A DNA stretch of 59,568 nt from Candidatus Buchananbacteria bacterium RIFCSPHIGHO2_01_FULL_44_11. Lineage in GTDB: Bacteria; Patescibacteriota; Patescibacteriia; Buchananbacterales; UBA6539. Below are positions 391 through 47,187 of this stretch, piece after piece. The first letter of the stretch is position 1. Each line of letters starts with the position of its first letter. Under the pieces are notes generated by a model, which saw only the letters and a program-made list of their open reading frames with translations, made no database searches and had not been told where the DNA came from. The stretch spans positions 1-59,568 of the forward strand of contig MHIE01000006.1 in the NCBI GenBank assembly GCA_001817345.1, in the 5' to 3' direction. The position numbers were made by a program, and so were the translations under genes.

Positions 391-678
391 GGGGTTCAAC
401 ATCCTGGTGCTTTTAGCGAGAGGGCCACACCTGATCCCATCCCGCCCCGCCCTTTTATTTGGATATAGAGTTCCCGTGCTTTTAGCGAGAGGGTCACACC
501 TGATCCCATCCCGAACTCAGTAGTTAAGCCTCTCAGCGCCAATGATACTCTTTCAGGGGAAAGTAGGTCAGCGCGGGAACTTTGTATCTAAATAAAATAT
601 AAAAAGGGCGGGGAAGCCTCTCAGCGCCAATGATACTCTTTCAGGGGAAAGTAGGTCAGCGCCAGGATATTGAACCTC
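391..678 (+). rRNA. Outer 5S rRNA shell: 5' part 401-444 and 3' part 614-668, split by a 169-nt insert (445-613) that carries the inner 5S
   Basis: Both parts are near-identical to the inner 5S (one C/T difference, 425 vs 494). The shell has its own 10-bp helix I, ATCCTGGTGC/GCGCCAGGAT, extended by further pairing 391-400/669-678. It lacks 12 nt of loop C (AACTCAGTAGTT). Confidence 0.6.
471..579 (+). rRNA. rrf: 5S rRNA, intact inner copy
   Basis: Helix I TTCCCGTGC/GCGCGGGAA closes. CCGAACTCAGTAGTTAAGC (loop C region) and GCGCCAATGATACT align to bacterial 5S along the whole length (~109 nt). Confidence 0.85.
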
Positions 679-7031: not shown

Positions 7032-7478
7032 ATGGTGATAAAAATTCGTTTGCTTCAAGCCGCTGACTTAAAATCTAAAAGTGGTTTCTGGGAAACTTTA
7101 ATCAACCTTGCTCCAATCAGGAAAGTCAGTTATTCTCAGGCGGTCAGGGCATATCATCGAGCCCAAAAACAAAATAGTTATACCTATGTAGCGGTTGATT
7201 CTACAGATGGCCAGATTGTTGGTACAACAAGGTTACTAGTTGAACAGAAATTTATTCGCAGTTTAGGTTTAGCTGGCCATATTGAAGACGTGGTTACTCG
7301 GAAAGGATATGAAGGTAACCGCATTGCTAGTCAATTGATTAGTAGGGCTTTACAAAAAGCCAAGGCCTTAGGTTGCTATAAAGTGATTCTTGATTGTCGT
7401 CAGGAGTTAATCAGTTTTTATAAAAAATTCGGTTTTAAGCCGGCTGAGATAGAAATGAAAATTTATTTTAAAAAATAG
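7032..7478 (+). CDS. GNAT acetyltransferase, glucosamine-6-phosphate N-acetyltransferase (GNA1)-like
   Basis: 148 aa. The GHIEDVVTRKGYEGNRIASQLI motif resembles the GNA1 acetyl-CoA site. The gene lies immediately downstream of glmS. Confidence 0.6.
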   Translation: MVIKIRLLQAADLKSKSGFWETLINLAPIRKVSYSQAVRAYHRAQKQNSYTYVAVDSTDGQIVGTTRLLVEQKFIRSLGLAGHIEDVVTRKGYEGNRIASQLISRALQKAKALGCYKVILDCRQELISFYKKFGFKPAEIEMKIYFKK

Positions 7479-7516: not shown

Positions 7517-8731
7517 ATGAAAGCTTTGATCAAAAAAAGACCAGATAATCCGCCGGCCTGGTATCGCGGTCTGGACTTGGTCGAAAAACCCGAGCCCCAA
7601 GTTTCCGCCGACCGACCGGTTAAAATTAAAATTTTAGCCAACGGCATTTGCGGCACTGACGTCGGCATTTATCAGGGCAAAGACGCTTTGGCTAATGTTT
7701 TAGCCCGGTTGAAAACTCCAGACGTTACATTGGGCCATGAATTTTGCGGCCGGATTACCGAGCTTCATCCTGCCAGTCAATCTTATTTGGCTAAGTTGCT
7801 CCTTAGGCGGAAAAATACCACGAGGCCGGTGTTAGATTATTTGGCCGGTAAAAGTGAAGAGACGCTGGCGTCCGCTTCCGACCTGGCTGAGTTTTTAAAC
7901 AAAAATTTTTACGTGACCGCTGAAATGCATTTTACCTGCGGCCAATGTCTGCAATGCCGGACCGGTTATGAGCATGTTTGCAAAAATACTATCGGCAAAG
8001 GTATTCTGGAAGACGGCGCTTATGCCGACTATATGGTGGCGCCGGCTAACCGCATTATTTTATTTGAAGCCGGCGAGGTGGCGCCGGAAATTATCGCTTT
8101 TATGGACGCCTTAGGCAATTCAGTCCATATGGCCCAGTCGGTTGACCTGGTCGGTAAAACCGTTTTAATCACCGGCGCCGGCGTTCAGGGCTTAATGAGT
8201 TGCGCCGTGGCCCGTCAGTTGGGCGCTAATAAAATTTTTATCACTGATGTTATTCCTCAAGACCAGAAAAGTATTGATAAACTCGGTATCGCGAAAAAAT
8301 TAGGCGCCGACGGCGTTTTTGACGTTGGTAGTCCCGCGGGTCAGCAAGCATTAAAAGAGATGGTGGCAAAAGAGACCGATCAGACCGGGGTAGACGTTGT
8401 CTTCGAGATGTCTGGCCACTACGGTGCCTATAAGCAGGTGTTTGCCAATATCAGAATGGGCGGCACGATGCTGTTGCTAGGTTTGCCGGCCGGTCAGCTG
8501 GAAGTTGATTTTTCCAAAGAGATTGTGTTTAAAGGTTTAACCATCAAAGGAATTTACGGCCGCCGGGTTTTTGACACCTGGGATTTGATGCGGTTTTTAT
8601 TGTCTAAGGGATTGGAAAAAACAATTTTAACCAGCGGCATTATCAGCCATCAGCTGCCGTTAGAGAAGTTTGAGGAAGGTTTTGAAGCTTTATGCAATGG
8701 TCAAGCGATTAAAGTAATACTTAAACCATAA
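7517..8731 (+). CDS. tdh: Zn-dependent L-threonine 3-dehydrogenase-like dehydrogenase
   Basis: MDR family motifs: GICGTDVGIY, GHEFCG, CGQCLQCRTGYEHVC and GAGVQG. It is followed by kbl. Confidence 0.7.
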   Translation: MKALIKKRPDNPPAWYRGLDLVEKPEPQVSADRPVKIKILANGICGTDVGIYQGKDALANVLARLKTPDVTLGHEFCGRITELHPASQSYLAKLLLRRKNTTRPVLDYLAGKSEETLASASDLAEFLNKNFYVTAEMHFTCGQCLQCRTGYEHVCKNTIGKGILEDGAYADYMVAPANRIILFEAGEVAPEIIAFMDALGNSVHMAQSVDLVGKTVLITGAGVQGLMSCAVARQLGANKIFITDVIPQDQKSIDKLGIAKKLGADGVFDVGSPAGQQALKEMVAKETDQTGVDVVFEMSGHYGAYKQVFANIRMGGTMLLLGLPAGQLEVDFSKEIVFKGLTIKGIYGRRVFDTWDLMRFLLSKGLEKTILTSGIISHQLPLEKFEEGFEALCNGQAIKVILKP

Positions 8732-8823
8732 ATTTTTAAATAACCAATTTTAAATTTTAATTAAATACTTCAATATTATAATATTTATTTAAAATTTGAA
8801 ATTTAAAATTGAGAATTGTTTCT

Positions 8824-10052: not shown

Positions 10053-10850
10053 ATGGACCAAAAAATCATCAAGCAAACAATTTTACAAGTCGGCGCCGAA
10101 AGTGGGGAATATTTGCGCAACCATTTTTACACCTTTAAAAATGTTTTTCGCAAAGACATCGGCAGTATTGTCACTAACGTTGATTTGGAGCTGACCGAAA
10201 TTATCATTCGGCGGCTGAAGACGATTTTTCCCAATCACGGCATTATTATCCATGGCGGGGAAAGTATCAACGAATCGGCGTCTTGCCGTTGGCTAGTTGA
10301 TCCACTGGACGGTAGTTCCCATTTTTCCCGCAACATTCCGATTTACACGGTTAATATCGCTTTTCAGGAAGATGGCCAGACGATTTTTGGCGCGGTCAAC
10401 CATCCGCAAACCCACCAATTGTTTTTTGCCCAAAAGGGCGGCGGCGCTTATTTGAACGGCATTGACATCAAGGTTTCAACTCAGGCCGAACTAGCCAAGG
10501 CGTTTATTTTTGTTGAGTTGCCGGAATATAAATTCAGTCACCAAAAAGATGCCGCGGCTAATTTCAGCCAGAACATGGCCATTGCCAATCAGTTGATCCA
10601 GCAGGCCGGCCAAGTGGAAAGTTTTCGGATTGGCGCTTTCGGCCAGTGTCTGGTGGCGGCCGGTTCATTTGACGCTTATGTTGATTTGTCCGGTTCGAGC
10701 CAAGAAGTGGGTCAGGCCGCTTCCACCTTAATTGTTGAAGAAGCCGGCGGCCAGGTGGTTAATATCACTAAACCCGAGAATGGTTTTGTTCAACTCTTGG
10801 TGACTAATAGTCATCTTGACCAGGCGTTAAAAAGTTTAGTTTTGTCTTAG
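10053..10850 (+). CDS. Inositol monophosphatase family protein
   Basis: WLVDPLDGSSHF motif; 265 aa. Confidence 0.8.
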   Translation: MDQKIIKQTILQVGAESGEYLRNHFYTFKNVFRKDIGSIVTNVDLELTEIIIRRLKTIFPNHGIIIHGGESINESASCRWLVDPLDGSSHFSRNIPIYTVNIAFQEDGQTIFGAVNHPQTHQLFFAQKGGGAYLNGIDIKVSTQAELAKAFIFVELPEYKFSHQKDAAANFSQNMAIANQLIQQAGQVESFRIGAFGQCLVAAGSFDAYVDLSGSSQEVGQAASTLIVEEAGGQVVNITKPENGFVQLLVTNSHLDQALKSLVLS

Positions 10851-14652: not shown

Positions 14653-15274
14653 GCCTGAGCTCTTGTAAGAAATTGGTTAAGAACTTTGTCCTTCTTTTTG
14701 CTAATTCTCTCGCTTTTTTTGTATACATCATACCCTCAACTTTTAAGAGTCTAGTGTAAAATAAGTCTAACGCGTAGTTTTTGGGTGTTGGTTTTCTATT
14801 TTCACAAAACGGGTCATCTGGATTATAGAAAGGCCTCTTCATCTGTCCTGTAGAAGAAAAAGTTCTCATAATTGATATTGCCCCTGTCGCTTCTAATCGG
14901 TCTGCATCCTGCAATATTTTTGCTTCAATCAGGTTCGGGACAATGCTTTTAGAAAAAGAGCATTGTCTAATCGCCGTTTGAACTTTATCTATTTTATGTT
15001 TTGGATATTCTTTTATACTCATTAACAACCTTTGTGTATACTTCGCGCTTTTATCAGATTCATTCCTGCCACGCGGGTCATTTTTGGGATAGATAACAAC
15101 ATCATGAAATAGTGCGGCCGGAATAATAATGTCAAAATCTGCACCTTCGTCCTTAGCAATTTTTTCTGCAAGATCCAAGACTCTTACAGAATGTTGAAAA
15201 TCATGAGAGATGTCTTTAGTTGTTATTTTTTTCTTTGCTAGACGTATAAGCTTTTTTCGTAAGCCTTTTGTCAT
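14633..15274 (-). CDS. HD-domain phosphohydrolase
   Basis: HDFQHSVRV .. ALFHDV .. DADRLE. Confidence 0.7.
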   Translation of the reverse strand: MTKGLRKKLIRLAKKKITTKDISHDFQHSVRVLDLAEKIAKDEGADFDIIIPAALFHDVVIYPKNDPRGRNESDKSAKYTQRLLMSIKEYPKHKIDKVQTAIRQCSFSKSIVPNLIEAKILQDADRLEATGAISIMRTFSSTGQMKRPFYNPDDPFCENRKPTPKNYALDLFYTRLLKVEGMMYTKKARELAKRRTKFLTNFLQELRLELDGK

Positions 15275-15308
15275 ATTCTTAAAATAGGCATGTAACTACA
15301 AATAATTT

Positions 15309-15896
15309 TGGTGGACCGTGAGAGAGTTGCTCCGATCCCGACTTTACGTCGTGGATCGAGGATCCCGCCTTCTTTAATAAAAATAATTTGGTGGCGGGAA
15401 ACTCTCGACCTCCTGTTTGTCCCGATAAACTTTTGGACCGGAGCGGGGTCCCCGCCAGAGGCGGGTGCGCCTCTGGCGCAGAACCGTGCGGCCTCCACAT
15501 TGTCCCGACAAACTTTTGGACCGGAGCGGGGTCGAACCGCTTACCTCCACATTGCAAATGTGGCGTTCTACCAGGTGAACTACCGGCCCAAAAGTTTGTC
15601 GAGGATTCTCGACTACTTTTATTTGAAAAATTTGTAAGTCGGAACAAATGTGGTGCTCTAGCCAACTGAGCTACAGGCCCATTCTGAATTTTCGAGGATT
15701 CTCAACTACTTTAATTTATAAAAAACAGTAAGTCGGAACAAATGTGATGCTCTACCAGCTGAGCTACGGGCCCACCAAAGATATCGAGGATCCCGGTTTT
15801 TTAAAGTTTACAAATTAATGAGCCGGACAAATGTGGTATTCTAGCCTACTGCCTGCCCGCCGAAGCTCGGAGAGCGTAGGCGGGAGCTAACGGCCC
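15309..15896 (-). other. Concentric tRNA-Ala locus: three extra 5' exon-like pieces (15645-15680, 15739-15773, 15828-15896) and two extra 3' pieces (15434-15502, 15309-15419) around one intact tRNA-Ala
   Basis: See findings. All 5' pieces end ..C(A/C)CACATTTG and both 3' pieces start CAA. The outermost pair has a matching acceptor stem, GGGCCGT/ACGGTCC-A-CCA. Confidence 0.6.
15517..15589 (-). tRNA. tRNA-Ala(UGC), intact core copy
   Basis: GGGCCGGTAGTTCACCTGGTAGAACGCCACATTTGCAATGTGGAGGTAAGCGGTTCGACCCCGCTCCGGTCCA. It has the G3:U70 pair and anticodon loop TTTGCAA. CCA is not encoded. Confidence 0.85.
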
Positions 15897-15930
15897 AGGC
15901 TTTACAAACGCTTAACTTTAGTGGTTACTT

Positions 15931-16182
15931 TTAAATACCTGGGATGAGGATTTTGGCGATCATGTCCAGCACTGACTGAATCAAATTAGTCATAATCAGA
16001 AAGCCGAGAATACTGGCGAGAATGCCGATCAGTTTATAAGCCAACCGCGATCCACCTTCAGTCCCCAAGTATTTATCGGCCGAGGGGATGGCACCGAAAT
16101 TTTCATAAAACCATTCAGATTTGATGGTGACTAAGGCTCCGACAGCGGCAATGATCAAACCGAGAATAATTCGACCAAGCAT
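15931..16182 (-). CDS. Small membrane protein (2 TM), unknown function
   Basis: 83-aa ORF, hydrophobic at both ends. Confidence 0.4.
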   Translation of the reverse strand: MLGRIILGLIIAAVGALVTIKSEWFYENFGAIPSADKYLGTEGGSRLAYKLIGILASILGFLIMTNLIQSVLDMIAKILIPGI

Positions 16183-16255
16183 AGTGTTATAATTTTAAAT
16201 AACCAATTTTAAATTTTAAGTACTGGATATTTATTTATAATTTAATATTAACCGA

Positions 16256-16525
16256 TGGTGGGCAGCATAGGAATCCCCGCCAAAGGCGGGTGCGCCTTTT
16301 GAGCCAGAGGCTCATCTGCCTTTGGTATGAGGCGCAGAACCTATGACCTCTTCGGTGTAAATGAAGCGCTCCCCGCCCGTTTCGCCTTACCTGATTTATC
16401 AATGGGTTTGAGAGGAGTCGAACCTCTGACCTTCTCGGTGTAAACGAGACGCTCTAACCAACTGAGCTACAAACCCATAATACGGCGAAGCAAGGCGGGC
16501 GGGTAACCAGCTGAGCTAGCTGTCC
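16256..16525 (-). tRNA. Outer tRNA-Val(UAC)-like gene interrupted in the D-loop (insert 16371-16502, contains the inner tRNA-Val) and in the T-loop (insert 16276-16336)
   Basis: With the inserts removed it reads GGACAGC TA GCTC AGCTGGTTAC GAGC G CTTCA TTTACAC CGAAG AGGTC ATAGG TTCGATT CCTAT GCTGCCC A CCA. All four stems form, with A3.C70 and A31.C39 mismatches. Confidence 0.5.
16403..16476 (-). tRNA. tRNA-Val(UAC), intact inner copy
   Basis: GGGTTTGTAGCTCAGTTGGTTAGAGCGTCTCGTTTACACCGAGAAGGTCAGAGGTTCGACTCCTCTCAAACCCA. Confidence 0.9.
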
Positions 16526-16526
16526 T

Positions 16527-16610
16527 TGGTGCGGACGGAGGGACTCGCCCCGTCGAATGACGGGGCGCCCGATTGGATAATCGGGCGAACTCCTTTCTTA
16601 GTATAATTAC
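16527..16610 (-). pseudogene. tRNA-Leu-like 3'-end copy with hairpin insert
   Basis: TGGTGCGGACG is identical to the 3' end of the adjacent tRNA-Leu. It is followed by hairpins TCGCCCCGTCGAATGACGGGGCG and CCCGATTGGATAATCGGG, then GAACTCC. Confidence 0.5.
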
Positions 16611-16698
16611 TGGTGCGGACGAGAGGATTTGAACCTCCAAGGGATTGCTCCCACTAGCACCTCAAGCTAGCGCGTATACCAAGTTCCGCCACGTCCGC
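16611..16698 (-). tRNA. tRNA-Leu(GAG)
   Basis: Long variable arm, anticodon loop TTGAGGT, CCA encoded. Confidence 0.9.
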
Positions 16699-16780
16699 TG
16701 AGTCGACATTATGGCTCAAGAAAAAACATTGATGGTTTCGCCCGAGCCTTGTCATTGAGAAAAGTGGGGGAGAGGCGCTT

Positions 16781-18810: not shown

Positions 18811-20313
18811 CTAGTTATCGCCCGAGTTAGTTTTTTTCAAGATTTTTTTGACTAAATTTAGCCCCTGCGGCTTGGTTTTGATTTTGTCAGTCAATTGGGC
18901 TTCGCGTAATATTGACAGGAGCCGGCCGATTAAGGGGCTGGATTTGAGCTTAAATGCTTTGATTAAGTCGTGGCCGTCAAGAATCGGTTGGGGCAGAATC
19001 TTTTTATTTTTGCTTTTACCTTTTAATTTGTTGATTCGGGTCTGAAGGTTTTTATAACTGCCAAAGTCCGGTTTGCCCGAAGGCGGAATAGTCGCGGCAA
19101 TATCGGCAAAAATTAGCATCATCAATTCCCGGCCGGGGAAATTGTCGTTGAAAAAATATCTTTCAATGGTTGTTTCTTTCATCATATTGGCCCGTTCATG
19201 GGTCGGCAGCATGTGTTTGGCAATGATTTTTTCTATAACCTCAATGTCTAAACCGGTTGAGGCCAGCCTTAGCCGTTCCGCCACTTTTTTGAATAATTTG
19301 GCTGAAGCGATGTCGTGGCCGTTAAAACGCAGCCGGTCGGCTTTGACCAAAGTTTCTGGTTTGCCCGAGTCATGAAAAATCAAACCCCAAATCACTTCAT
19401 CAGTCAACGGGACGAGGCTAAATTCTTTTTTAAACTCTTTTGATTCAAGTTTTTCTAAAGCGAGCAGGGTATGGGTCCAAACATCGCCCTCAGTGTGCCA
19501 TTTTTTGGGTTGAGGGCAAGTTTTTGTCGGCAACAGCTCAGGCATCAGAATTTTCAAAGCCCCGCTTTGGTCAAGCAGGGTCAAAGCTTTTTTGGGATTG
19601 GGCCGCACCATCTTAACCAGTTCTTTAGCCATGACTTCATAAGGCACAATTTGTTCAGCCTGATTTTTTTTTGTCAAATTTTTAATGCTTTTCTTTATCT
19701 CCCGCCAAGTTTTTGCGTCAAGCGAAAAATCAAGCTGGCAACTGAATCGGATTGCCCGCAGCATCCGGGAATAATCTTCGGCAAAACGTTTTTTTGGTTC
19801 GCCAACGCAACGGATAATCTTTTTTTTGAGATCGGCCTGACCGGCAAACGGATCGAGCAACCGGGAATTTTTTACGTCCCAGGCCATGGCGTTAATGGTA
19901 AAATCACGCCGGCTCAAGTCGTCTTCAATTTTTATTTTTGGACTGCTGTTGATTTTAAAATCGCGGTAAGCGCCGGATAAATGCAGTGAGTGCTCGGTCC
20001 GGGGCAAGGCAATGTCAATTTCTTCAGCCGTTTGGGTTTTTCTATTTCCATTTGCCGGTTTTGGCTTGAATTTAAAAACGCCAAATTTTTTGCCGACCAA
20101 ATTTACTTTGCCCTGACGGGCCAGGAATTTTTCCAACTCCGCTTTGCCCACGCCGCGGATGACAAAGTCAAAATCATTAGTCTCACGGTTAAGGAGAATA
20201 TCGCGGACCGCCCCGCCGACTAAAAAGATTTCCGCCTTGGGAAACCGTTTTACCAACTGCTTAATAAAGGGCTTGGCCTGCCAGCCGTTTAGTTTTTTTT
20301 GCTCATTAATCAT
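18811..20313 (-). CDS. cca: CCA-adding tRNA nucleotidyltransferase / poly(A) polymerase family with HD domain
   Basis: LVGGAVRDILLNRETNDFDF, RRDFTINAMA, C-terminal HD region. Confidence 0.8.
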   Translation of the reverse strand: MINEQKKLNGWQAKPFIKQLVKRFPKAEIFLVGGAVRDILLNRETNDFDFVIRGVGKAELEKFLARQGKVNLVGKKFGVFKFKPKPANGNRKTQTAEEIDIALPRTEHSLHLSGAYRDFKINSSPKIKIEDDLSRRDFTINAMAWDVKNSRLLDPFAGQADLKKKIIRCVGEPKKRFAEDYSRMLRAIRFSCQLDFSLDAKTWREIKKSIKNLTKKNQAEQIVPYEVMAKELVKMVRPNPKKALTLLDQSGALKILMPELLPTKTCPQPKKWHTEGDVWTHTLLALEKLESKEFKKEFSLVPLTDEVIWGLIFHDSGKPETLVKADRLRFNGHDIASAKLFKKVAERLRLASTGLDIEVIEKIIAKHMLPTHERANMMKETTIERYFFNDNFPGRELMMLIFADIAATIPPSGKPDFGSYKNLQTRINKLKGKSKNKKILPQPILDGHDLIKAFKLKSSPLIGRLLSILREAQLTDKIKTKPQGLNLVKKILKKTNSGDN

Positions 20314-23496: not shown

Positions 23497-23593
23497 TGGT
23501 GGGCGCACGTGGATTTGTCCCGATCCCGACTTTACGTCGTGGATCGAGGATCCCGCCTTCTTTTTAAAAATAGTAGTGGCGGGAAACCATTGG
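23497..23593 (-). pseudogene. tRNA 3'-end copy (..AAATCCACGTGCGCCCACCA) with a 67-nt T-loop insert (23518-23584)
   Basis: The insert is nearly identical to 15330-15399. No matching 5' half was found. Confidence 0.5.
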
Positions 23594-23611: not shown

Positions 23612-23688
23612 TGGTGGGCTCGTGCAGATTTGAACTGCAGACCTCGTCGATGTCAACGACGCGCTCTAACCAACTGAGCTACGAGCCC
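23612..23688 (-). tRNA. tRNA-Val(GAC)
   Basis: GGGCTCGTAGCTCAGTTGGTTAGAGCGCGTCGTTGACATCGACGAGGTCTGCAGTTCAAATCTGCACGAGCCCACCA. Confidence 0.9.
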
Positions 23689-23798
23689 TCTTGCTAGATG
23701 TTATTTTTGTTTTTTGTTAGTTACCAATATAGCCTAAAAAAAATTCTTTGGCAAGATTAACGTTTTCAGACAATGGGCCACGTCTTTCGCGAAAGACG

Positions 23799-23968
23799 TG
23801 GTGGGCATGCCCGGATTCGTCCCGATTTTGTCCAAATCTTTGATTTGGTCACAAAATCGAGGATCTCACCGCCGTCGGCGGGACCCCGCCCATGGCGGTG
23901 GCCGCCTTTATTGAAAATAATTAATGTGGCGGGAAACTAGGAGCCACCGCCTTGTCTCAAGCATTTAA
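23799..23968 (-). pseudogene. tRNA 3'-end copy (..GAATCCGGGCATGCCCACCA) with a 115-nt T-loop insert (23820-23934), leading into the helix that carries tRNA-Ile
   Basis: Same module order as 15330-15399 and 23518-23584: GTCCCGA..TCGAGGA, then CCCGCC..GGCGGG. Confidence 0.45.
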
Positions 23969-25715: not shown

Positions 25716-28427
25716 ATGAGTAATCAGGAAATTCCCAAAGTCTACGAACCAAAAAACGTTGAAGACTCTATCTACAAAAAGTGGGAAGAGTCTGGTTTTT
25801 TTAATCCCGATAATCTACCCGGCCATCGGCCGAAAGCTTTTAGCATTGCCATGCCGCCGCCCAACGCCACCGGCGTGCTGCACATCGGCCATGCCGAGTT
25901 TATTACGATTCAAGACTTGGTGATTCGTTATCAAAGAATGCTGGGCAAGAAAACTTTGTGGCTGCCGGGCACTGACCACGCCGCCATTGCGACCCAGACT
26001 AAAGTGGAAAAATTAATCAAGGCCAAAGACGGCAAGTCTCGGCATGACTTGGGCCGGGAAGAGTTTTTAAAGCGAGTCAAAACCTTTGTGGTGGAGTCCC
26101 AAAATACCATCCGCAATCAAATCCGAAAAATGGGGTCGAGCTGCGACTGGTCGCGAGAACGCTACACGCTTGACAGCGGTTTGACCAAAGCCGTTAATGA
26201 AGCTTTTGTCCGGATGCATAAAGACGGGTTGATTTATCGGGGCAACCGGATTGTTAACTGGTGTCCGCGGTGCCAATCAACTTTAGCGGATGACGAAGTG
26301 GAATATCGGGAACAAAAAGCGCCGTTCTACTATTTTAAATATGGACCGGTGGTAATCGGCACCGCCCGGCCGGAAACCAAATTTGGCGATAAGGTGATTA
26401 TTGTCCATCCCGATGACAAACGCTATAAAGATTTGGTTGGCCAAGAGCTGCCGGTGGAGTGGATTTTAGGACCGATTACCGCCAAAGTGATTGCCGATCC
26501 AGTAGCGGAGATGGATTTAGGTAGTGGCGCCATGACAATTACCCCTGGCCACAGCTTTGTTGATTTTGAACTGGCTCAAAAATATCATTTACCGATCGAA
26601 AAAATCATTAACGAAAAAGGAGAGCTGACTCAAGTCGCCGGCTCGTTTGCCGGTCTGGACGTTGCCACCGCCCGGCATAAAGTTTTTGAATTGCTGAAAA
26701 GTAAAGGACTAGTTGATCACGTTGACGAAAATTACGTTCACAATCTTTCTGTTTGCTATCGGTGTGATACGCCGGTAGAGCCGCTGGTTTCAGAGCAGTG
26801 GTTTATCGCTGTTAATAAACCGATCAAAAAATTTGGCGGCAAATCTTTAAAGGAGCGGGCTTTGGCCGTAGTCAAAGACAGCCAAGTGGAAATTGTTCCG
26901 GAACGGTTTAAAAAAGTCTATTATCACTGGCTGGAGAATTTACGGGACTGGTGTATCAGCCGGCAAATTTGGTTTGGCCACCGCATACCCGTTTACTACC
27001 GTAAACGGGAAAATCCGAAATCCTCCGCCAAAGGCGGATCCGCCTCCGGCGGGAAAACTCAAAACTCAAAACTGGATAAAAGTCTAACGGAAGATGAAGT
27101 TTACGTCGGCTCTACGCCTCCGGCGGGCGAAGGCTGGCAACAAGACCCCGATACTCTCGACACCTGGTTTTCGTCGGGCCTCTGGACTTTTTCGACGCTC
27201 GGCTGGCCGGAGAAGACTAAGGATCTGAAGACGTTTCATCCAACATCGCTGATGGAAACCGGTTATGACATTTTATTTTTTTGGGTGGCGCGGATGATCA
27301 TTATGTCCACCTATTTGATGGATCAGGTGCCGTTTCAGCAGGTTTATCTTCACGGTTTGGTTCGCGACGAACAAGGCCGGAAAATGTCAAAATCTTTAGA
27401 TAACATTATTGATCCCCTGGAGGTGATCAAAAAGTTTGGCGCTGACGCCGTTCGTTTGAGTTTATTGATTGGCGTCACACCGGGTAATGACCTGAATTTG
27501 GCGGAAAGTAAAATTGCCGGCGCCCGGAATTTTATCAATAAACTTTGGAACATTTCGCGCTATATTTTAATGACTACTAAAAAGCCCGAACTGATTGAGA
27601 CGCGGCCAAAACCAAAAACTTTGGCTGATCAGTGGATTTTGGATGAATTAACCGTTTTGCAAAGTACGGTCACCACCCACCTTGATGCTTATCAATTTTC
27701 TATGGCCGGGGAGGCGATTTATGAATTCAGTTGGTCAAAATTCGCCGACTGGTATTTGGAGATCGCTAAAATTGAAGGCGGCAAAGACGACATTTTGCTT
27801 TATGTTCTGCAGAACTTATTAAAACTTTGGCATCCTTTTACGCCTTTTGTCACTGAGCGGATTTGGGCGATGATTGATCCCAACGGTAAGCCCAAAGCGC
27901 TTTTGATGGTGGAGTCCTGGCCTCAGGTTAGCCGCCAGGTCAGTAGTCGCGAAACCAAAGTGGTTAAGGATTTCAATTTGGTTCAGCAGGTTGTCTCCAC
28001 TATTCGCAATCTGCGGGCCGAGAGTAATATTGCGCCGGGCAAACTTTTGACCGCCATTATCGTGGCTGGCCCTAAGGTTAAAATAATCAAAGACCAGTCA
28101 GAGGTAATTAAGTCCCTGGCCCGTCTTGGCGAGCTTGAGGTTTTAGTCAAAGGCAAAAAGCCGGCCGGCTCTCTTTCCGCTTTGGCGGCCGGCCTGGAGA
28201 TTTATTTGCCGGTTTCTGATATGATAGACATAGGTAAAGAAGTTTCTCGGTTAAACTTGGAAGTCAAGCGTGTCAAAGATTTTATCATTCATCTGGAAAA
28301 TAAACTCCAGAATCAAAAGTTTTTGGAACGGGCGCCGAAAAATATTATTGCCAATGAGCAAAAAAAGCTGGAGGAAAATAAAGAGAATCTGGGAAAAATC
28401 CAGCAGCAGTTAAAAAGTTTAAAATGA
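25716..28427 (+). CDS. valS: Valyl-tRNA synthetase
   Basis: PPPNATGVLHIGHA, KMSKSLDN, C-terminal coiled coil. It carries an in-frame hairpin insert at 27024-27054. Confidence 0.95.
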   Translation: MSNQEIPKVYEPKNVEDSIYKKWEESGFFNPDNLPGHRPKAFSIAMPPPNATGVLHIGHAEFITIQDLVIRYQRMLGKKTLWLPGTDHAAIATQTKVEKLIKAKDGKSRHDLGREEFLKRVKTFVVESQNTIRNQIRKMGSSCDWSRERYTLDSGLTKAVNEAFVRMHKDGLIYRGNRIVNWCPRCQSTLADDEVEYREQKAPFYYFKYGPVVIGTARPETKFGDKVIIVHPDDKRYKDLVGQELPVEWILGPITAKVIADPVAEMDLGSGAMTITPGHSFVDFELAQKYHLPIEKIINEKGELTQVAGSFAGLDVATARHKVFELLKSKGLVDHVDENYVHNLSVCYRCDTPVEPLVSEQWFIAVNKPIKKFGGKSLKERALAVVKDSQVEIVPERFKKVYYHWLENLRDWCISRQIWFGHRIPVYYRKRENPKSSAKGGSASGGKTQNSKLDKSLTEDEVYVGSTPPAGEGWQQDPDTLDTWFSSGLWTFSTLGWPEKTKDLKTFHPTSLMETGYDILFFWVARMIIMSTYLMDQVPFQQVYLHGLVRDEQGRKMSKSLDNIIDPLEVIKKFGADAVRLSLLIGVTPGNDLNLAESKIAGARNFINKLWNISRYILMTTKKPELIETRPKPKTLADQWILDELTVLQSTVTTHLDAYQFSMAGEAIYEFSWSKFADWYLEIAKIEGGKDDILLYVLQNLLKLWHPFTPFVTERIWAMIDPNGKPKALLMVESWPQVSRQVSSRETKVVKDFNLVQQVVSTIRNLRAESNIAPGKLLTAIIVAGPKVKIIKDQSEVIKSLARLGELEVLVKGKKPAGSLSALAAGLEIYLPVSDMIDIGKEVSRLNLEVKRVKDFIIHLENKLQNQKFLERAPKNIIANEQKKLEENKENLGKIQQQLKSLK

Positions 28428-38118: not shown

Positions 38119-38278
38119 ATATTATTTATTTTTATAATAAAAACCTCCCATTGCTGGGAGATTTTTTATCCTCGGATTTCGAGCAATATAACTCAGAGGC
38201 CAAGGTGGCAGATGGGGCAGGCGAGCCCACGACCGCCCCGACATTTTTAGCTTTTCGCTGAGTCTAAAACAACAAAGG

Positions 38279-38350
38279 GGTGACCAGAGGGAATTGAACC
38301 CTCGTCAAGGGTGCCACAAACCCTTGTGTTACCACTACACCATGGTCACC
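38279..38350 (-). tRNA. tRNA-His(GUG) with encoded G-1
   Basis: G-GTGACCA..anticodon loop TTGTGGC..TGGTCAC-C. It is flanked by the 12-bp inverted repeat ACAACAAAGGGG/CCCCTTTGTTGT. Confidence 0.85.
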
Positions 38351-38469
38351 CCTTTGTTGTCTAGATGAAAAAAGCCGATACGTTTTATTTTAAATTATAA
38401 ATTTTAAATAAAATCTCAATATTATAATATTTAATTAAAATTTAAAATTAATTATTGAAAATTGTTTTC

Positions 38470-38554
38470 TGGTGCACCCGACAGGATTTCCCGCCCGAGA
38501 CGGGTCCGCCTTCTTGTTTTCTTATTAAGGTGGGCGGAGAACCTTAGCCGGTAG
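38470..38554 (-). pseudogene. Copy of the tRNA-Arg(CCG) T-loop-to-CCA end with a 49-nt T-loop insert (38490-38538)
   Basis: TGGTGCACCCGACAGGATTT is identical to 38555-38574. The insert holds TCCGCC..GGCGGA and CCCG..CGGG hairpins and ends before GAACC. Confidence 0.6.
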
Positions 38555-38631: not shown

Positions 38632-38668
38632 TAACGCTTTGGCGGGTAAAAATTTCACCCCGTCTCAC

Positions 38669-38737
38669 TTGCTCCCAGCAGGAATCTCCGCCAGAGGCGG
38701 ATCCGCCCCTTTAGAATTTATAGGATGGCGGAGAACC
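38669..38737 (-). pseudogene. Orphan tRNA 3'-end fragment (..GATTCCTGCTGGGAGCA) with a 46-nt T-loop insert
   Basis: Hairpins TCCGCCAGAGGCGGA and TCCGCCCC..GGCGGA lie between GAATC and GAACC. There is no 5' half. Confidence 0.45.
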
Positions 38738-38874: not shown

Positions 38875-39207
38875 GTAAAACAAAATGATACTACTATAAA
38901 ATTAAGCTTTAGTCAACCAGCCAGCCGCTGCTGATGCAGCGGAAATATCAAATTACAAATTTTAATCCCCAAACAATTTTCAAAATCCAAAATTTAGTCA
39001 TGGCAGTTTTTGATGGTTGGGATTTATTGGCGACGTAGGGCGAGTGTCCGCCTGAGGCGGACCGAATTTAGCTAGCCAAAAAGGGTGTAATACCCCGTCC
39101 CGTATATAGTAAACTTAAAGCCTCTACGGGACTGCGTAAGAAGTGGACAGAGCAAGCTCTGCGGTCAATACCCTTTATTTGAGATTTGGTGCTTGAAAAT
39201 TCGTTTT

Positions 39208-40068
39208 TTACCTATATTTCCTGGTAGTTAAAATCGAAGAATGACCGAGTAAATTTTTGACCTGCTGCAAATCCGTGCCTTCTTTAATTAAATAGCTGGC
39301 AATGGTGTGACGGATAATCCTTGGGTTGACCGGATTTTTTATGCCCACCGCCCGGGCGTATGCCTGAATCAGACGCTGAATGCTTCTGGCTGTGATTGCT
39401 TTAATTTTACCCGGCCGAGTGGCCCGGTCGTGGCGGATGAATAAAAACGGCGACTGATCTTTTCTTTCAGCTAAATATTTTTTTAGCCAAAATTTAGCCT
39501 GGTTTGATATAAATACCTTTCTGGGTTTTTGCTTTTTGCCTAAAACCACAAAATCGTCGCGTTCTAATCTAACCTCCTGGGTGCGTAAATTGGCCAATTC
39601 AGATACGCGCAGGCCAGAGGCGAAAAGCAGCTCCAGCATCGCCTTATCGCGCCACTGAATGATTTTTGGCTGTTTGATTCTTAAAGGGGACTCTAACAAT
39701 CTTTCCAATTCCGAATTTTCCAGCCGACTAATTTTTCTATTGGGCAGCCTGGCTAATTTGATTTGTTCGGCCTTCAAGCTTGTTTGGTTTTGCCAATATT
39801 TTAAAAATGATCTTAAAGCGATCAGATGGTAGTTTTTGGTTGAGCCGGCCAAAGTTCGGCCAAAGCGGTTAGCTTGTTTATCTAGCCAGAGCCGGTATTG
39901 GTTGATTAATTTATCGTCCAGCTGACTGAGGTTAGTAATTTTTGAGGCTAATAAAAACCGCTTTAAATAAAAATCATAATTTTTTATTGTCGCCAAGCTT
40001 AGGTGGTCTTGATTTTTAAGATGGCTTAAAAATTTTTCTATTAATGGCGTAATGGCAAGTAACTTCAT
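39208..40068 (-). CDS. Tyrosine recombinase, XerC/XerD-like
   Basis: ASGLRVSELANL, HTIASYL, LLGHSSILTTRKY (catalytic Tyr near the C-terminus). Confidence 0.8.
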   Translation of the reverse strand: MKLLAITPLIEKFLSHLKNQDHLSLATIKNYDFYLKRFLLASKITNLSQLDDKLINQYRLWLDKQANRFGRTLAGSTKNYHLIALRSFLKYWQNQTSLKAEQIKLARLPNRKISRLENSELERLLESPLRIKQPKIIQWRDKAMLELLFASGLRVSELANLRTQEVRLERDDFVVLGKKQKPRKVFISNQAKFWLKKYLAERKDQSPFLFIRHDRATRPGKIKAITARSIQRLIQAYARAVGIKNPVNPRIIRHTIASYLIKEGTDLQQVKNLLGHSSILTTRKYR

Positions 40069-40171: not shown

Positions 40172-40239
40172 ATCTCCGCCAGAGGCTTGCTCCAGAGGCC
40201 AGCCAAAGGCTGGCAGGCGCATCGGCCTCTGGCGGAGAT
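40172..40239. repeat. Long GC hairpin (15-bp perfect stem)
   Basis: ATCTCCGCCAGAGGC ... GCCTCTGGCGGAGAT encloses GCCAGCC-AAA-GGCTGGC. Confidence 0.7.
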
Positions 40240-40420
40240 CAGCCTTTAACTGAAAGTCTGGAATGACAGGCGGAGAAAAGGTGCGGGGTTGACAGTTATT
40301 CCTGCCTATGTTATGGTAGTTAAGCTAATTGTTAAAAGACGACTGCTCGGCTGCGCCTTAAACCGGCTGACCCCGGCTAACGACCAGACTTGGCAACCGT
40401 CAGCGAAAGGGCCAAGCATT

Positions 40421-40789
40421 GTGTTGAACAAAAAGAAGAAGGAAAAAATCATCGCTAAATACAAAACCCACTCCAGCGACACTGGTTCTTCTCCGGTTCA
40501 GATCGCGATTTTAACTGAAGAGATCAAAGAACTGACTAAGCACCTGAAGTCTCACAAAAAAGACTTCTCTTCCCGCCGGGGTTTATTAAAAAAAGTGGCT
40601 GAAAGACGGCGACTTTTAAATTATTTACGGCGCGAAGACGAAAAAACCTACCACTCTTTAATTCAGGATCTGAAATTGAAAGTTTTGGAACCGAAAATTG
40701 AAGGCGAAAAAGAAAAAAAATTGGCTGATGCGATTGAAGAGGTGGAAGCCGAAACCGAGCCGGAAGCAGAACCCGAGGTTGAGGAATAA
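40421..40789 (+). CDS. rpsO: 30S ribosomal protein S15 with a ~35-aa acidic C-terminal tail
   Basis: DTGSSPVQIAILTEEIKELTKHLKSHKKDFSSRRGLLKKVAERRRLLNYL. A GTG/TTG start near 40421 is preferred to the track's 40289. Confidence 0.85.
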   Translation: MLNKKKKEKIIAKYKTHSSDTGSSPVQIAILTEEIKELTKHLKSHKKDFSSRRGLLKKVAERRRLLNYLRREDEKTYHSLIQDLKLKVLEPKIEGEKEKKLADAIEEVEAETEPEAEPEVEE

Positions 40790-46708: not shown

Positions 46709-46800
46709 ATTCTTTACTCTGGACAAAATATTAGAATTAAGATAAGCTGAGGTTACAATTGATAAATCAATATAGCGCACCATTTTGGCGCGTTTTTTGT

Positions 46801-47082
46801 ATGAAAAATTATTATATCTATATTATTACTAATCAAAGAAACAACGTTTTATATACCGGTGTTACCAATGACCTAAATAGGAGGATATATGAACATAAAA
46901 ATAAATTAATACCGGGTTTCAGCCATAAGTACAATTTAAACAAATTGGTTTATTATGAGGAATCTAATGGTATCTACAATGCAATCATTAGAGAAAAGCA
47001 GATTAAGAATTGGCACAGGGAATGGAAGGTTAATCTGATTACGAGCGTTAACCCTCGCTGGGAGGATTTATACATCTTATAG
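46801..47082 (+). CDS. GIY-YIG nuclease superfamily protein (UPF0213-like)
   Basis: YYIYIITNQRNNVLYTGVTNDLNRRIYEHK. Confidence 0.8.
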   Translation: MKNYYIYIITNQRNNVLYTGVTNDLNRRIYEHKNKLIPGFSHKYNLNKLVYYEESNGIYNAIIREKQIKNWHREWKVNLITSVNPRWEDLYIL

Positions 47083-47084
47083 TT

Positions 47085-47150
47085 GTGTCATTCTAAACTT
47101 GTTTCAGAATCTGAATCAAGAAGAGATCCTGAAATAAATTCAGGATGACA
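47085..47150. repeat. Paired-hairpin repeat (MITE-like), copy 2
   Basis: GTGTCATTCTAAACTTGTTTCAGAATC ... GATCCTGAAATAAATTCAGGATGACA. Confidence 0.5.
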
Positions 47151-47187
47151 AGAATAATCATTAATATTTTAACCCTAAATATATTCT

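Follow-up and report, generated by a model that had tools for sequence, protein, structure and literature searches.

A tRNA-Val gene nested in the relic of another and candidate hairpin-bounded replacement cassettes in structural-RNA genes of Patescibacteria

Introduction

Contig MHIE01000006.1 of Candidatus Buchananbacteria bacterium RIFCSPHIGHO2_01_FULL_44_11 (assembly GCA_001817345.1), whose whole analysed stretch of 59,568 nt is called the window in the following, harbors at 16256-16525 on the minus strand a tRNA-Val(UAC) gene that is interrupted twice, once in the D loop by an insert carrying a complete second tRNA-Val(UAC) and once in the T loop. This arrangement raises the question of whether the inserts are removed from the RNA, so that the outer gene still gives a tRNA, or whether the outer gene is an inactivated shell around its successor; a first-pass annotation made from the sequence alone had named both possibilities. 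Our analysis did not support a removal of the inserts from the RNA and supported an inactivated shell. The reading that we prefer, and to which we assign a probability of roughly 70%, is that hairpin-bounded mobile cassettes insert into structural-RNA genes and thereby deliver a replacement copy. The Val locus is best explained as a single example of a mobile-DNA system that extends across the Patescibacteria clade.

Results

Structure of the nested Val locus

The outer tRNA-Val(UAC) is composed, on the minus strand, of 16525-16504, 16371-16337 and 16275-16256, and is canonical once both inserts are removed. Its first piece (16504-16525) comprises the 5' strands of the acceptor and D stems and the D loop up to A21, the second (16337-16371) the 3' strand of the D stem, the anticodon arm, the variable loop, the 5' strand of the T stem and T54 to C56, and the third (16256-16275) G57 to T60, the 3' strands of the T and acceptor stems, the discriminator A and an encoded CCA. 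On the native sequence, ARAGORN and Rfam detected the inner tRNA-Val(UAC) only (16403-16476, minus strand, 75.3 bits). Deletion of both inserts in silico led to the ARAGORN call of a 77-nt tRNA-Val(tac) with a complete cloverleaf, deletion of the D-loop insert alone to no tRNA, and deletion of the T-loop insert alone to the inner gene only. Both the cloverleaf of the outer gene and the intact inner gene, as described in the first-pass annotation, were thereby recovered, and a check of the stem pairs also found its two mismatches, A3.C70 (C70 lying in the third piece) and A31.C39 in the anticodon arm of the second.

The D-loop insert (16372-16503, minus strand, 132 nt) is a hairpin-bounded cassette with the inner tRNA as cargo and AT-rich linkers. 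It starts with CCCGCCCG and ends with CGGGCGGG, and its arms read CCCGCCCG-CC-TTGC-TTCGCC and GGCGAA-AC-GGGCGGG. An insert at 16371-16502 had been described before; the insert itself stands, and its boundary has to be moved by one base, since 16503-16372 leaves the outer gene a fully canonical D arm (GCTC-AGCTGGTTA-GAGC, 4-bp stem). The inner gene, which we regard as the working one, revealed 0 stem mismatches, does not encode its CCA and has the acceptor GGGTTTG/CAAACCC, a foreign allele type. The T-loop insert (16276-16336, minus strand, 61 nt) lies between C56 and G57 and belongs to the GGTTC^RA double-hairpin element family treated below. As previously noted, it consists of two hairpins, namely TGCGCC..GGCGCA at 16336-16291 and CCCGCCTTTGGCGGG at 16290-16276; the loop of the former holds a third small hairpin (GAGCCTCTGGCTC, 16313-16301). 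The fold of the native 270 nt had an energy of -108 kcal/mol (z = -3.7), and the insert-closing stem and the hairpins form in the minimum free energy (MFE) structure.

Ancestry and decay of the outer gene

Genome and metagenome scans for the neighboring L19 gene retrieved relatives that are all metagenome-assembled genomes (MAGs) of the Patescibacteria/Parcubacteria group, with a best L19 identity of about 76-77%. In most of them the gene order L19, tRNA-Leu(GAG), tRNA-Val(UAC), a small membrane open reading frame (ORF) in some cases, and tRNA-Ala(UGC) is kept. The spliced outer Val gene is 88% identical, with an identical T arm, to the sole tRNA-Val(UAC) of relative L002 at the same L19-Leu-Val position, a likeness that exceeds chance. 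Comparing outer and inner Val genes, we found 71% identity and compensatory changes, which agrees with the earlier view that the outer gene is not a decayed copy of the inner one and makes it an independent allele.

The intact tRNA-Leu(GAG) next to it (16611-16698, minus strand; ARAGORN and Rfam), the first tRNA gene of a probable rplS-Leu-Val transcript, has a T arm unlike that of the tRNA-Leu 3'-end relic at 16527-16593 (minus strand). This relic consists of GGAGTTC, two 20-nt GC hairpins and GAGTCCCTCCGTCCGCACCA, and ends one base upstream of the outer Val gene. The final 20 nt of the relic, followed by the single A and the beginning of the outer Val gene, match the intact Leu-A-Val junction of L002. 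The old operon thus survives as a chain of relics, to which the working Val gene and the working Leu gene with its distinct T arm were added later. Based on position and similarity, the outer tRNA-Val(UAC) is the ancestral resident of the conserved rplS - tRNA-Leu - tRNA-Val position.

With regard to its state, 106 of 107 intact tRNA-Val(UAC) orthologues revealed no stem mismatch (counting pairs that are neither Watson-Crick nor GU) and the remaining one a single mismatch, compared with two in the outer gene. Both are G-to-A changes at positions where the orthologues aligned with the outer gene have G. The outer gene is therefore, as judged from these stems, decaying. The proposal that the shell was inactivated very recently holds for the inactivation, which the stem mismatches and the relic pattern support, and fails for the recency, as the event is undatable and several nested insertions have followed it.

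Occupied and empty sites in relatives

Comparison with related loci, which the first-pass annotation had suggested, revealed the single-gene ortholog in L002 and recurring relics, with the same pattern of shells and relics in many Patescibacteria. L124 has an uninterrupted tRNA-Val(UAC) (GGACAGT...), and L058/L150 and L045 have the same gene split at one and the same anticodon position by cassettes with the termini TTCACCCCGT...ACGGGGCAAG and with different inner tRNA-Val genes; L124 on the one hand and L058 and L045 on the other thus represent the empty and the occupied site. The same type of cassette sits in another resident gene in L089. In L010, the working gene is of the window's outer-type allele, and a downstream T-loop relic has the acceptor strand CAAACCC of the window's inner gene, so that each allele type has displaced the other in some lineage.

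GC hairpins also sit in the Val shells of L017 and L101, at the D-loop position 21/22 that is used in the window. A cassette of the window and the Ala cassette of L001 share identical flanks (12/12 and 16/16), and their cargo, a tRNA-Ala, is identical at 60/74 positions. Across 160 loci, a near-identical copy of the tRNA's own 3' 16 nt within 500 nt was found downstream of 15 of 287 distinct intact tRNAs, a lower bound as diverged relics are uncounted, and upstream of none.

The T-loop double-hairpin element

We searched for the T-loop element by a strict scan for GTTC or GTT(C/T)C followed by abutting GC-rich hairpins with perfect stems and then by RA, using reversed sequences as controls. 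This resulted in 20 two-hairpin modules (17 distinct) in real sequence and 0 in the controls. A permissive scan for a T loop with tiled hairpins was discarded, because the reversed-sequence controls were as rich as real sequence (2197 against 3262). Usually, the module is made up of an intact tRNA, a spacer of 16-50 nt, (G)GTTC, hairpins 1 and 2 and a copy of nt 57-76 (often 18/18 identical), the double hairpins falling into size classes of 15+15 nt and 20+20 nt. The T loops of intact genes lack inserts; those of the relics contain them. The GC content of the hairpin units ranges from 0.58 to 0.67, compared with about 0.35-0.45 in their surroundings, and the motif CCGCCNNNGGCGG occurs 9 times in the window versus 0.1 expected.

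The 42-nt inserts of L026 and L124 are reverse complementary to each other (40/42, versus 32/42 in the same orientation), and one module lies within an AAGGTTC repeat that is not a tRNA (L133). Found in both orientations and in unrelated contexts including a non-tRNA site, the element behaves as a DNA insertion element with a target sequence and not as a strand-specific intron, and the same comparisons speak for its mobility. One of the nine copies of CCGCCNNNGGCGG belongs to a double hairpin of 30 nt (TCCGCCAAAGGCGGA TCCGCCTCCGGCGGG, 27024-27053) in valS (25716-28427, plus strand), apparently in frame and encoding SAKGGSASGG, in a variable linker that could not be aligned with the Thermus thermophilus ValRS structure.

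Movement of the hairpins by a mechanism of the IS200/IS605 or REP/RAYT type may be envisaged and is not supported: the hairpins sit immediately against their target, with none of the subterminal spacers typical of those elements, and among the scanned ORFs a Y1 transposase was not seen. Likewise, a 4-nt target duplication (TGGA, TGAA) seen at inverted-repeat-flanked GIY-YIG elements in L052 and L058 was found neither in L049 nor at the tRNA cassettes, and we make no claim on it. Apart from these elements, the leader of rpsO (S15, 40289-40789) contains a 64-nt compound GC palindrome (40174-40237, plus strand; CTCCGCCAGAGGC...GCCTCTGGCGGAG with an inner GCCAGCCAAAGGCTGGC hairpin), of the same hairpin family outside a tRNA context.

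Association with GIY-YIG nuclease genes

Several cassettes of the relatives are linked to small GIY-YIG ORFs. In L010, the anticodon cassette of tRNA-Ala carries an 84-aa GIY-YIG ORF (7162-7416; Pfam E = 5.5e-20) upstream of the inner tRNA, and in L009, L003 and L156 such an ORF separates the working tRNA from what is left of the displaced old gene. A position of the ORF between new and native gene parts was likewise seen in L010/L085. Overall, 7 of 14 GIY-YIG hits (PF01541; some organisms were sampled twice) lie within 30 nt of an intact tRNA, at a share of 8% of the sequence within 150 nt of a tRNA. The ORFs are enclosed by perfect inverted repeats of 14-17 bp, and the repeats in L049, L052 and L058 (ACCC(C/T)GTTA.A...) are the termini of the tRNA-Val anticodon cassettes. 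In addition, hairpin arms TCCCGA/TCGGGA bracket the ORF and tRNA in L010 and form an empty hairpin beside the relic in L009. The cassettes of the window have AT-rich stretches at the places where relatives carry the ORF. The association of cassettes with GIY-YIG ORFs is thus apparent from these loci, and the nuclease may be the mobiliser. A single-protein scan of viral contigs for a GIY-YIG cassette on a phage resulted in no hits.

The sole GIY-YIG gene of the window (46759-47082, plus strand, 107 aa) is free-standing, with lspA on one side and a Mg-chelatase-like gene on the other. It is followed at about 47085-47160 by a motif of two hairpins, GTCATTCTAAACTTGTTTCAGAATC ... CCTGAAATAAATTCAGGATGAC, which was also observed at about 835-915 and in L002 at about 10455-10540.

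Other nested genes and relics in the window

The tRNA genes for Ala, Leu, Ile, Val(GAC) and both Arg, and the 5S rRNA gene, each have a shell or relic beside an intact copy. The 5S rRNA locus (402-670, plus strand) consists of an outer gene with a 5' part at about 402-444 and a 3' part at 614-670, lacking 12 nt, into which a cassette (445-613) bounded by CCCCGCCC...GGGCGGGG is inserted; the intact 5S lies within it at 472-579 (87.9 bits). Compensatory changes in helix I make up almost all the differences between the outer and the inner 5S. The CCCGCCC/GGGCGGG type of inverted repeat bounds both the 5S cassette and the Val D-loop insert; the heptamer CCCGCCC alone is not over-represented (13 versus 9.9 expected), so that only its paired use as cassette termini is of note. 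Because a 5S rRNA gene is nested in the same manner, the phenomenon is not tRNA-specific and is unrelated to tRNA splicing.

The tRNA-Ala locus (15310-15896, minus strand) is nested in two to three layers like a Russian doll. An intact tRNA-Ala (15589-15517), flanked by a leader/trailer helix of 12-16 nt and by the termini TTCCGAC...GTCGGGA, is inserted in the anticodon of the innermost outer 5' half (15680-15645), between nt 35 and 36. This half is enclosed by a second one ending in the anticodon (15773-15739), and the outermost, third half (15896-15828) also ends in the anticodon and has a D-loop hairpin of its own. The corresponding 3' halves (15501-15434 and 15418-15310) both have T-loop inserts.

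Relics also follow tRNA-Val(GAC) and tRNA-Ile (23497-23588 and 23797-23952, minus strand), the latter tRNA displaying a 12-bp leader/trailer inverted repeat. The relics of the Ala and of this cluster share a 59-nt insert after GTTTC of the T loop (15324-15382 and 23512-23570, 90% identity), composed of CCGCC-AT-rich-GGCGG, GATCCTCGA, TCCACGAC, GTAAA and GTCGGGATCGG. The tRNA-Val(GAC) itself (23612-23688, minus strand) was a canonical ARAGORN call and was absent from the Rfam list at gathering threshold, presumably owing to a filter miss.

The Arg cluster on the minus strand contains tRNA-Arg(CCG), tRNA-Arg(UCU) and relics (38470-38546, 38665-38736 and about 39040-39140). Behind tRNA-Arg(CCG) come GGTTC, a pair of hairpins and a second copy of the gene's 3' end, identical at 20/20 positions; behind tRNA-Arg(UCU) lies a similar module derived from a different allele. 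The Arg(CCG), Ala and Leu modules are 3' direct repeats of the intact tRNA (18/18 to 20/20); at the Val locus, the old halves flank a complete new gene instead. A degenerate tRNA-like relic with the hairpin GTCCGCCTCAGGCGGAC was observed upstream of tRNA-Arg(UCU). For tRNA-His (38277-38349, minus strand), no shell was clearly identified at the locus; an extended leader/trailer inverted repeat (TAGACAACAAA / TTTGTTGTTTTAGA), like that of cassette tRNAs, was observed there, followed by a GC-rich stretch.

Genomic context and assembly

Apart from rplS, the genes flanking the Val locus encode guanylate kinase, a pseudouridine synthase and the CCA-adding enzyme (18811-20313), and at the start of the window lie the 3' end of a 23S rRNA gene of bacterial type and the 5S gene. 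A single strong promoter-like site was detected upstream of rplS (17269-17241), with no other before the tRNAs on that strand and no terminator-like site between it and the tRNAs. AT-rich intergenic repeats near gene starts or tRNA clusters (8729-8763 and 16188-16222, 91%; 8746-8821 and 38392-38467, 78%) may be shared promoter or leader sequence.

A region of 1541 nt is 100% identical across three separately assembled contigs (different assembler or different sample), and GCA_001817575.1 is also identical over it, save for 16 N within the T-loop insert (window 16286-16301). Because independent assemblies agree over 1541 nt, the locus is not an assembly artefact. The relic region is, however, an assembly breakpoint, and many short contigs with the same L19 gene (L161-L170, same organism) end or become chimeric 90-450 nt downstream of L19. 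Strain polymorphism for the inserts was rejected, since all assemblies of the organism are identical and the "16 mismatches" of the NCBI record are the N run; the divergent contig tails of L168 and L169 were rejected as strain variants as well, being of low quality or chimeric.

Discussion

Could the interrupted gene be spliced, or be an artefact?

If the outer gene were functional, its inserts would be excised and its three exons ligated, and two tRNA-Val(UAC) species would come from one locus. The insert-free shell, whose fold is a full cloverleaf in which no conserved loop nucleotide is missing, the position of the inserts in loops rather than stems, their compact closed folds and a probable transcription of the shell would all suit such a gene. 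We nevertheless consider it very unlikely, and the removal of the inserts, one of the two options of the first-pass annotation, did not hold up against the presence of an intact copy with the same anticodon, the two A.C mismatches that are so rare among the functional orthologues, and the orientation of the elements and their occurrence in fragments. No relative was found that has, near the L19-Leu locus, nothing but an interrupted tRNA-Val(UAC), the intact same-anticodon gene always being there, and the majority of the homologous structures are 5' or 3' fragments too truncated to yield a tRNA by splicing. The occurrence of the same element in both orientations and in non-tRNA DNA, and the same architecture in a 5S rRNA whose outer gene misses 12 nt, also argue against an intron. 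In the MFE fold as in the centroid fold, each insert pairs within itself, by CCCGCCCG/CGGGCGGG in one and as two or three self-contained hairpins in the other; inspection of these folds, made without a dedicated bulge-helix-bulge search, revealed no exon-intron helix and no 3-nt bulges. Rfam gave no match to group I or group II introns at gathering threshold, nor at E<=1 over 15250-16760, and among the 27 ORFs of the 59.6-kb window scanned against Pfam and NCBIfam, neither EndA nor RtcB was found. An assembly artefact, in which strain variants were joined chimerically at repeated tRNA sequence, might be suspected from the short contigs that break or turn chimeric inside the relic region and from the 16 N in the NCBI record; with three independent assemblies in agreement and analogous structures in dozens of unrelated MAGs and metagenome contigs, it has next to no credibility.

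Duplication, integrase scars or replacement cassettes?

Two further explanations accept the relics as real and do without replacement cassettes. According to one, local duplication or gene conversion makes spare copies, one of which decays and is colonised by an unrelated and highly active family of GC-palindromic mini-elements, the nesting being a by-product of their insertion into hairpin loops. We judge this unlikely, although a part of the data suits it well: hairpin loops accept further insertions, in L147, identical 3' modules stand in tandem as unequal recombination would give, and the near-identity of some shells to their neighbors, taken up below, points the same way. At the Val locus itself, however, inner and outer genes are only 71% identical and the outer one is 88% identical to the resident of another genome, and the window's inner acceptor type is the displaced relic in L010. 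Moreover, L058 and L045 share site, termini and resident gene and have different inner tRNAs, and cassette termini are better conserved than the cargo and common to the GIY-YIG ORFs flanked by inverted repeats. According to the other explanation, shells and relics are attL/attR scars of tyrosine-integrase elements (prophages or islands) that carried the 3' part of the tRNA and have since been almost wholly deleted. Many modules do consist of an intact tRNA and then a copy of nt 57-76, with a left identity of about 5-6 nt that resembles a core site, and Williams is said to have named the T loop and the anticodon loop in 2002 as classic sublocations of integrases in tRNA genes. A tyrosine recombinase gene (39208-40068, minus strand), the only recombinase gene of the window, is the immediate upstream neighbor of the relics around the tRNA-Arg genes; it scores highest as a housekeeping recombinase of the Xer type (XerA, XerC and XerD) and stays under every NCBIfam cut-off. 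No integrase was found between any pair of copies, any ORF surviving there being a GIY-YIG nuclease. The supposed elements measure only 16-330 nt in more than 12 independent genomes, and the tRNA-to-relic spacers of 16-50 nt are far from kb-scale integrase elements. As a tRNA nested in a D loop and a 5S nested in a 5S are not products of att recombination either, we regard such scars as improbable.

Some observations weigh against replacement by cassettes, too. The shells in L078 and L101, whose exons are identical or nearly so to the neighboring intact gene, and the outer 5S, which hardly differs from the adjacent inner one outside helix I, fit local duplication or gene conversion better than foreign arrival. 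An empty allele of the D-loop site was not found, the assemblies of the organism being identical and the nearest relatives having about 76% L19 identity. A nuclease ORF is absent from the Val locus and its neighborhood, the only GIY-YIG gene of the window lying 30 kb off, and the GIY-YIG proteins of 84-107 aa are bare catalytic domains that lack the DNA-binding domain of characterised homing endonucleases, which speaks against the classical architecture of such enzymes. Finally, the model leaves unexplained why hairpins occupy essentially every relic T loop of the window and why many 3' relics start exactly at (G)GTTC; given these starts, hairpin insertion, breakage and replacement may be mechanistically coupled.

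A model for the locus

According to the cassette model, the inner, foreign-type allele would have arrived as the cargo of a GC-rich inverted-repeat cassette that integrated between nt 21 and 22 of the D loop, and a separate double-hairpin mini-element would have inserted in the T loop at GGTTC^GA. The shell would most likely still be transcribed from the rplS/Leu promoter, RNase P and 3' processing would free the inner tRNA and the CCA-adding enzyme would supply its missing end, the pieces of the shell presumably never being rejoined. More generally, insertion occurs at fixed positions in RNA genes (T loop 56/57, D loop 21/22, anticodon 35/36), and the loop of an element holds one of four things, namely a small GIY-YIG ORF, a replacement RNA gene (tRNA or 5S), an AT-rich remnant or nothing; in the relatives, cassettes appear with the ORF, the RNA gene, both or nothing. 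Elements with a replacement could reach fixation where the gene is essential and single-copy, the old gene persisting as a relic, and cargo-less hairpins would survive only in relics. What sequence comparison itself bears out are the ancestry and decay of the outer gene, the insertion at the DNA level, the recurrence, the replacement of alleles in both directions between lineages, the shared termini and the association with GIY-YIG ORFs. From these we infer a transfer by a nuclease-driven homing-type or a transposition-like process, and the order of events.

A bolder version, which we put forward tentatively and hold for somewhat doubtful as a whole, is that these cassettes represent an undescribed class of selfish gene-replacement elements in Patescibacteria. 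Inverted-repeat (hairpin) cassettes, whose autonomous copies would carry a minimal single-domain GIY-YIG nuclease in the hairpin loop, would enter 5S genes and the D, anticodon and T loops of essential single-copy tRNA genes at fixed positions. There they would use the resident promoter, bring an allelic copy with flanking stems as a portable processing unit, and kill the resident gene so that the host depends on the invader. Repeated rounds might lead to the Russian-doll genes, and cargo-less hairpins would fill the T and D loops of the corpses, perhaps as landing pads or break sites by which damage and replacement become coupled.

If replacement by cassettes is right, tRNA and 5S genes of Patescibacteria, usually treated as the most stable and vertically inherited ones, are routinely overwritten by foreign alleles, which would affect the reading of tRNA sets, tRNA-based phylogeny and the tRNA counts used for MAG completeness in this group. 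It would also account for the assembly breaks at these loci. Standard tRNA finders see the inner gene only and miss the shells, and elsewhere could report fragments as genes. Our analysis furthermore points to a minimal GIY-YIG protein and to a targeted (GGTTC^RA) palindromic element of 30-40 nt, and removes an unsupported claim of non-canonical tRNA splicing in bacteria.

Comparison with known systems

The literature searched contained no report of tRNA genes that are nested or interrupted by hairpins in the Candidate Phyla Radiation (CPR)/Patescibacteria. The ectopic or multiple tRNA introns and the split tRNAs of archaea and of the red alga Cyanidioschyzon merolae concern functional copies and go along with a bulge-helix-bulge and a dedicated endonuclease and ligase, none of which was encountered here. 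For the hairpin in valS, the Rickettsia palindromic elements that Ogata et al. reportedly described in 2000 offer a likeness, being said to be small palindromes of about 100-150 nt that insert in frame in protein genes and also in RNA genes; they form an unrelated, longer family without T-loop target or gene-replacement cargo. Integrative elements leave partial tRNA 3' ends beside an intact tRNA, a mark of DNA that entered the gene and restored it (PMC9897764). Our loci, by contrast, lack an integrase, their elements measure tens to hundreds of nt, not only 3' fragments but also 5' halves and whole nested genes occur, and GC hairpins sit at the junction. The free-standing GIY-YIG protein SegB of phage T4, encoded in a tRNA cluster, cleaves the tRNA region of a relative and favors its own by co-conversion (PMC2330249). 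In contrast to the proteins discussed here, it is full-length with a DNA-binding part, and its homing leaves behind no nested or relic tRNAs and involves no hairpin termini.

Double-hairpin elements (DHEs) and other GC-rich palindromic repeats of fungal and sponge mitochondria are described in PMC2800124 (citing Paquin 2000) and PMC10085805 as short G+C-rich paired stem-loops in A+T-rich genomes, multi-copy and with evidence for mobility; DHEs lie in intergenic and variable rRNA parts and reportedly are not removed from transcripts. The elements of the window resemble them by description in being G+C-rich adjacent stem-loops, multi-copy and with evidence for mobility. They differ by their target GGTTC^RA in the tRNA T loop, their sizes of 15+15 or 20+20 nt, their location on bacterial chromosomes and their tie to displaced tRNA ends, and a relationship in sequence is not to be expected.

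The closest functional parallel is offered by the mobile endonuclease ORFs (mORFs) that create gene hybrids in fungal mitochondria (Allomyces atp6; Glomus atp6, atp9, cox2 and nad3). They display the logic that the loci of the window share: a free-standing LAGLIDADG or GIY-YIG endonuclease gene enters an essential gene and brings along a foreign copy of the part that it displaces, and the native part stays downstream as an unexpressed relic that resembles close relatives, which the inserted part does not (PMC3630166). Here, too, the native part is like that of relatives and the inserted part foreign, with L124 as the empty counterpart of the L058 and L045 cassettes, and the layout of L009, L003 and L156 (new tRNA, GIY-YIG ORF, relic) is that of an mORF. 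Differences are the bacterial setting, tRNA and 5S targets, the nesting of a whole gene inside a loop, GC-rich or perfect inverted-repeat termini, a nuclease of 84-107 aa and the absence of the ORF from the cassettes of the window. Our findings would extend the strategy of an endonuclease ORF with a replacement gene part from fungal mitochondrial protein genes to bacterial RNA genes, and the overwriting of structural-RNA genes by mobile DNA, which combines endonuclease-associated gene replacement with palindromic mini-elements, appears to be undescribed for bacteria.

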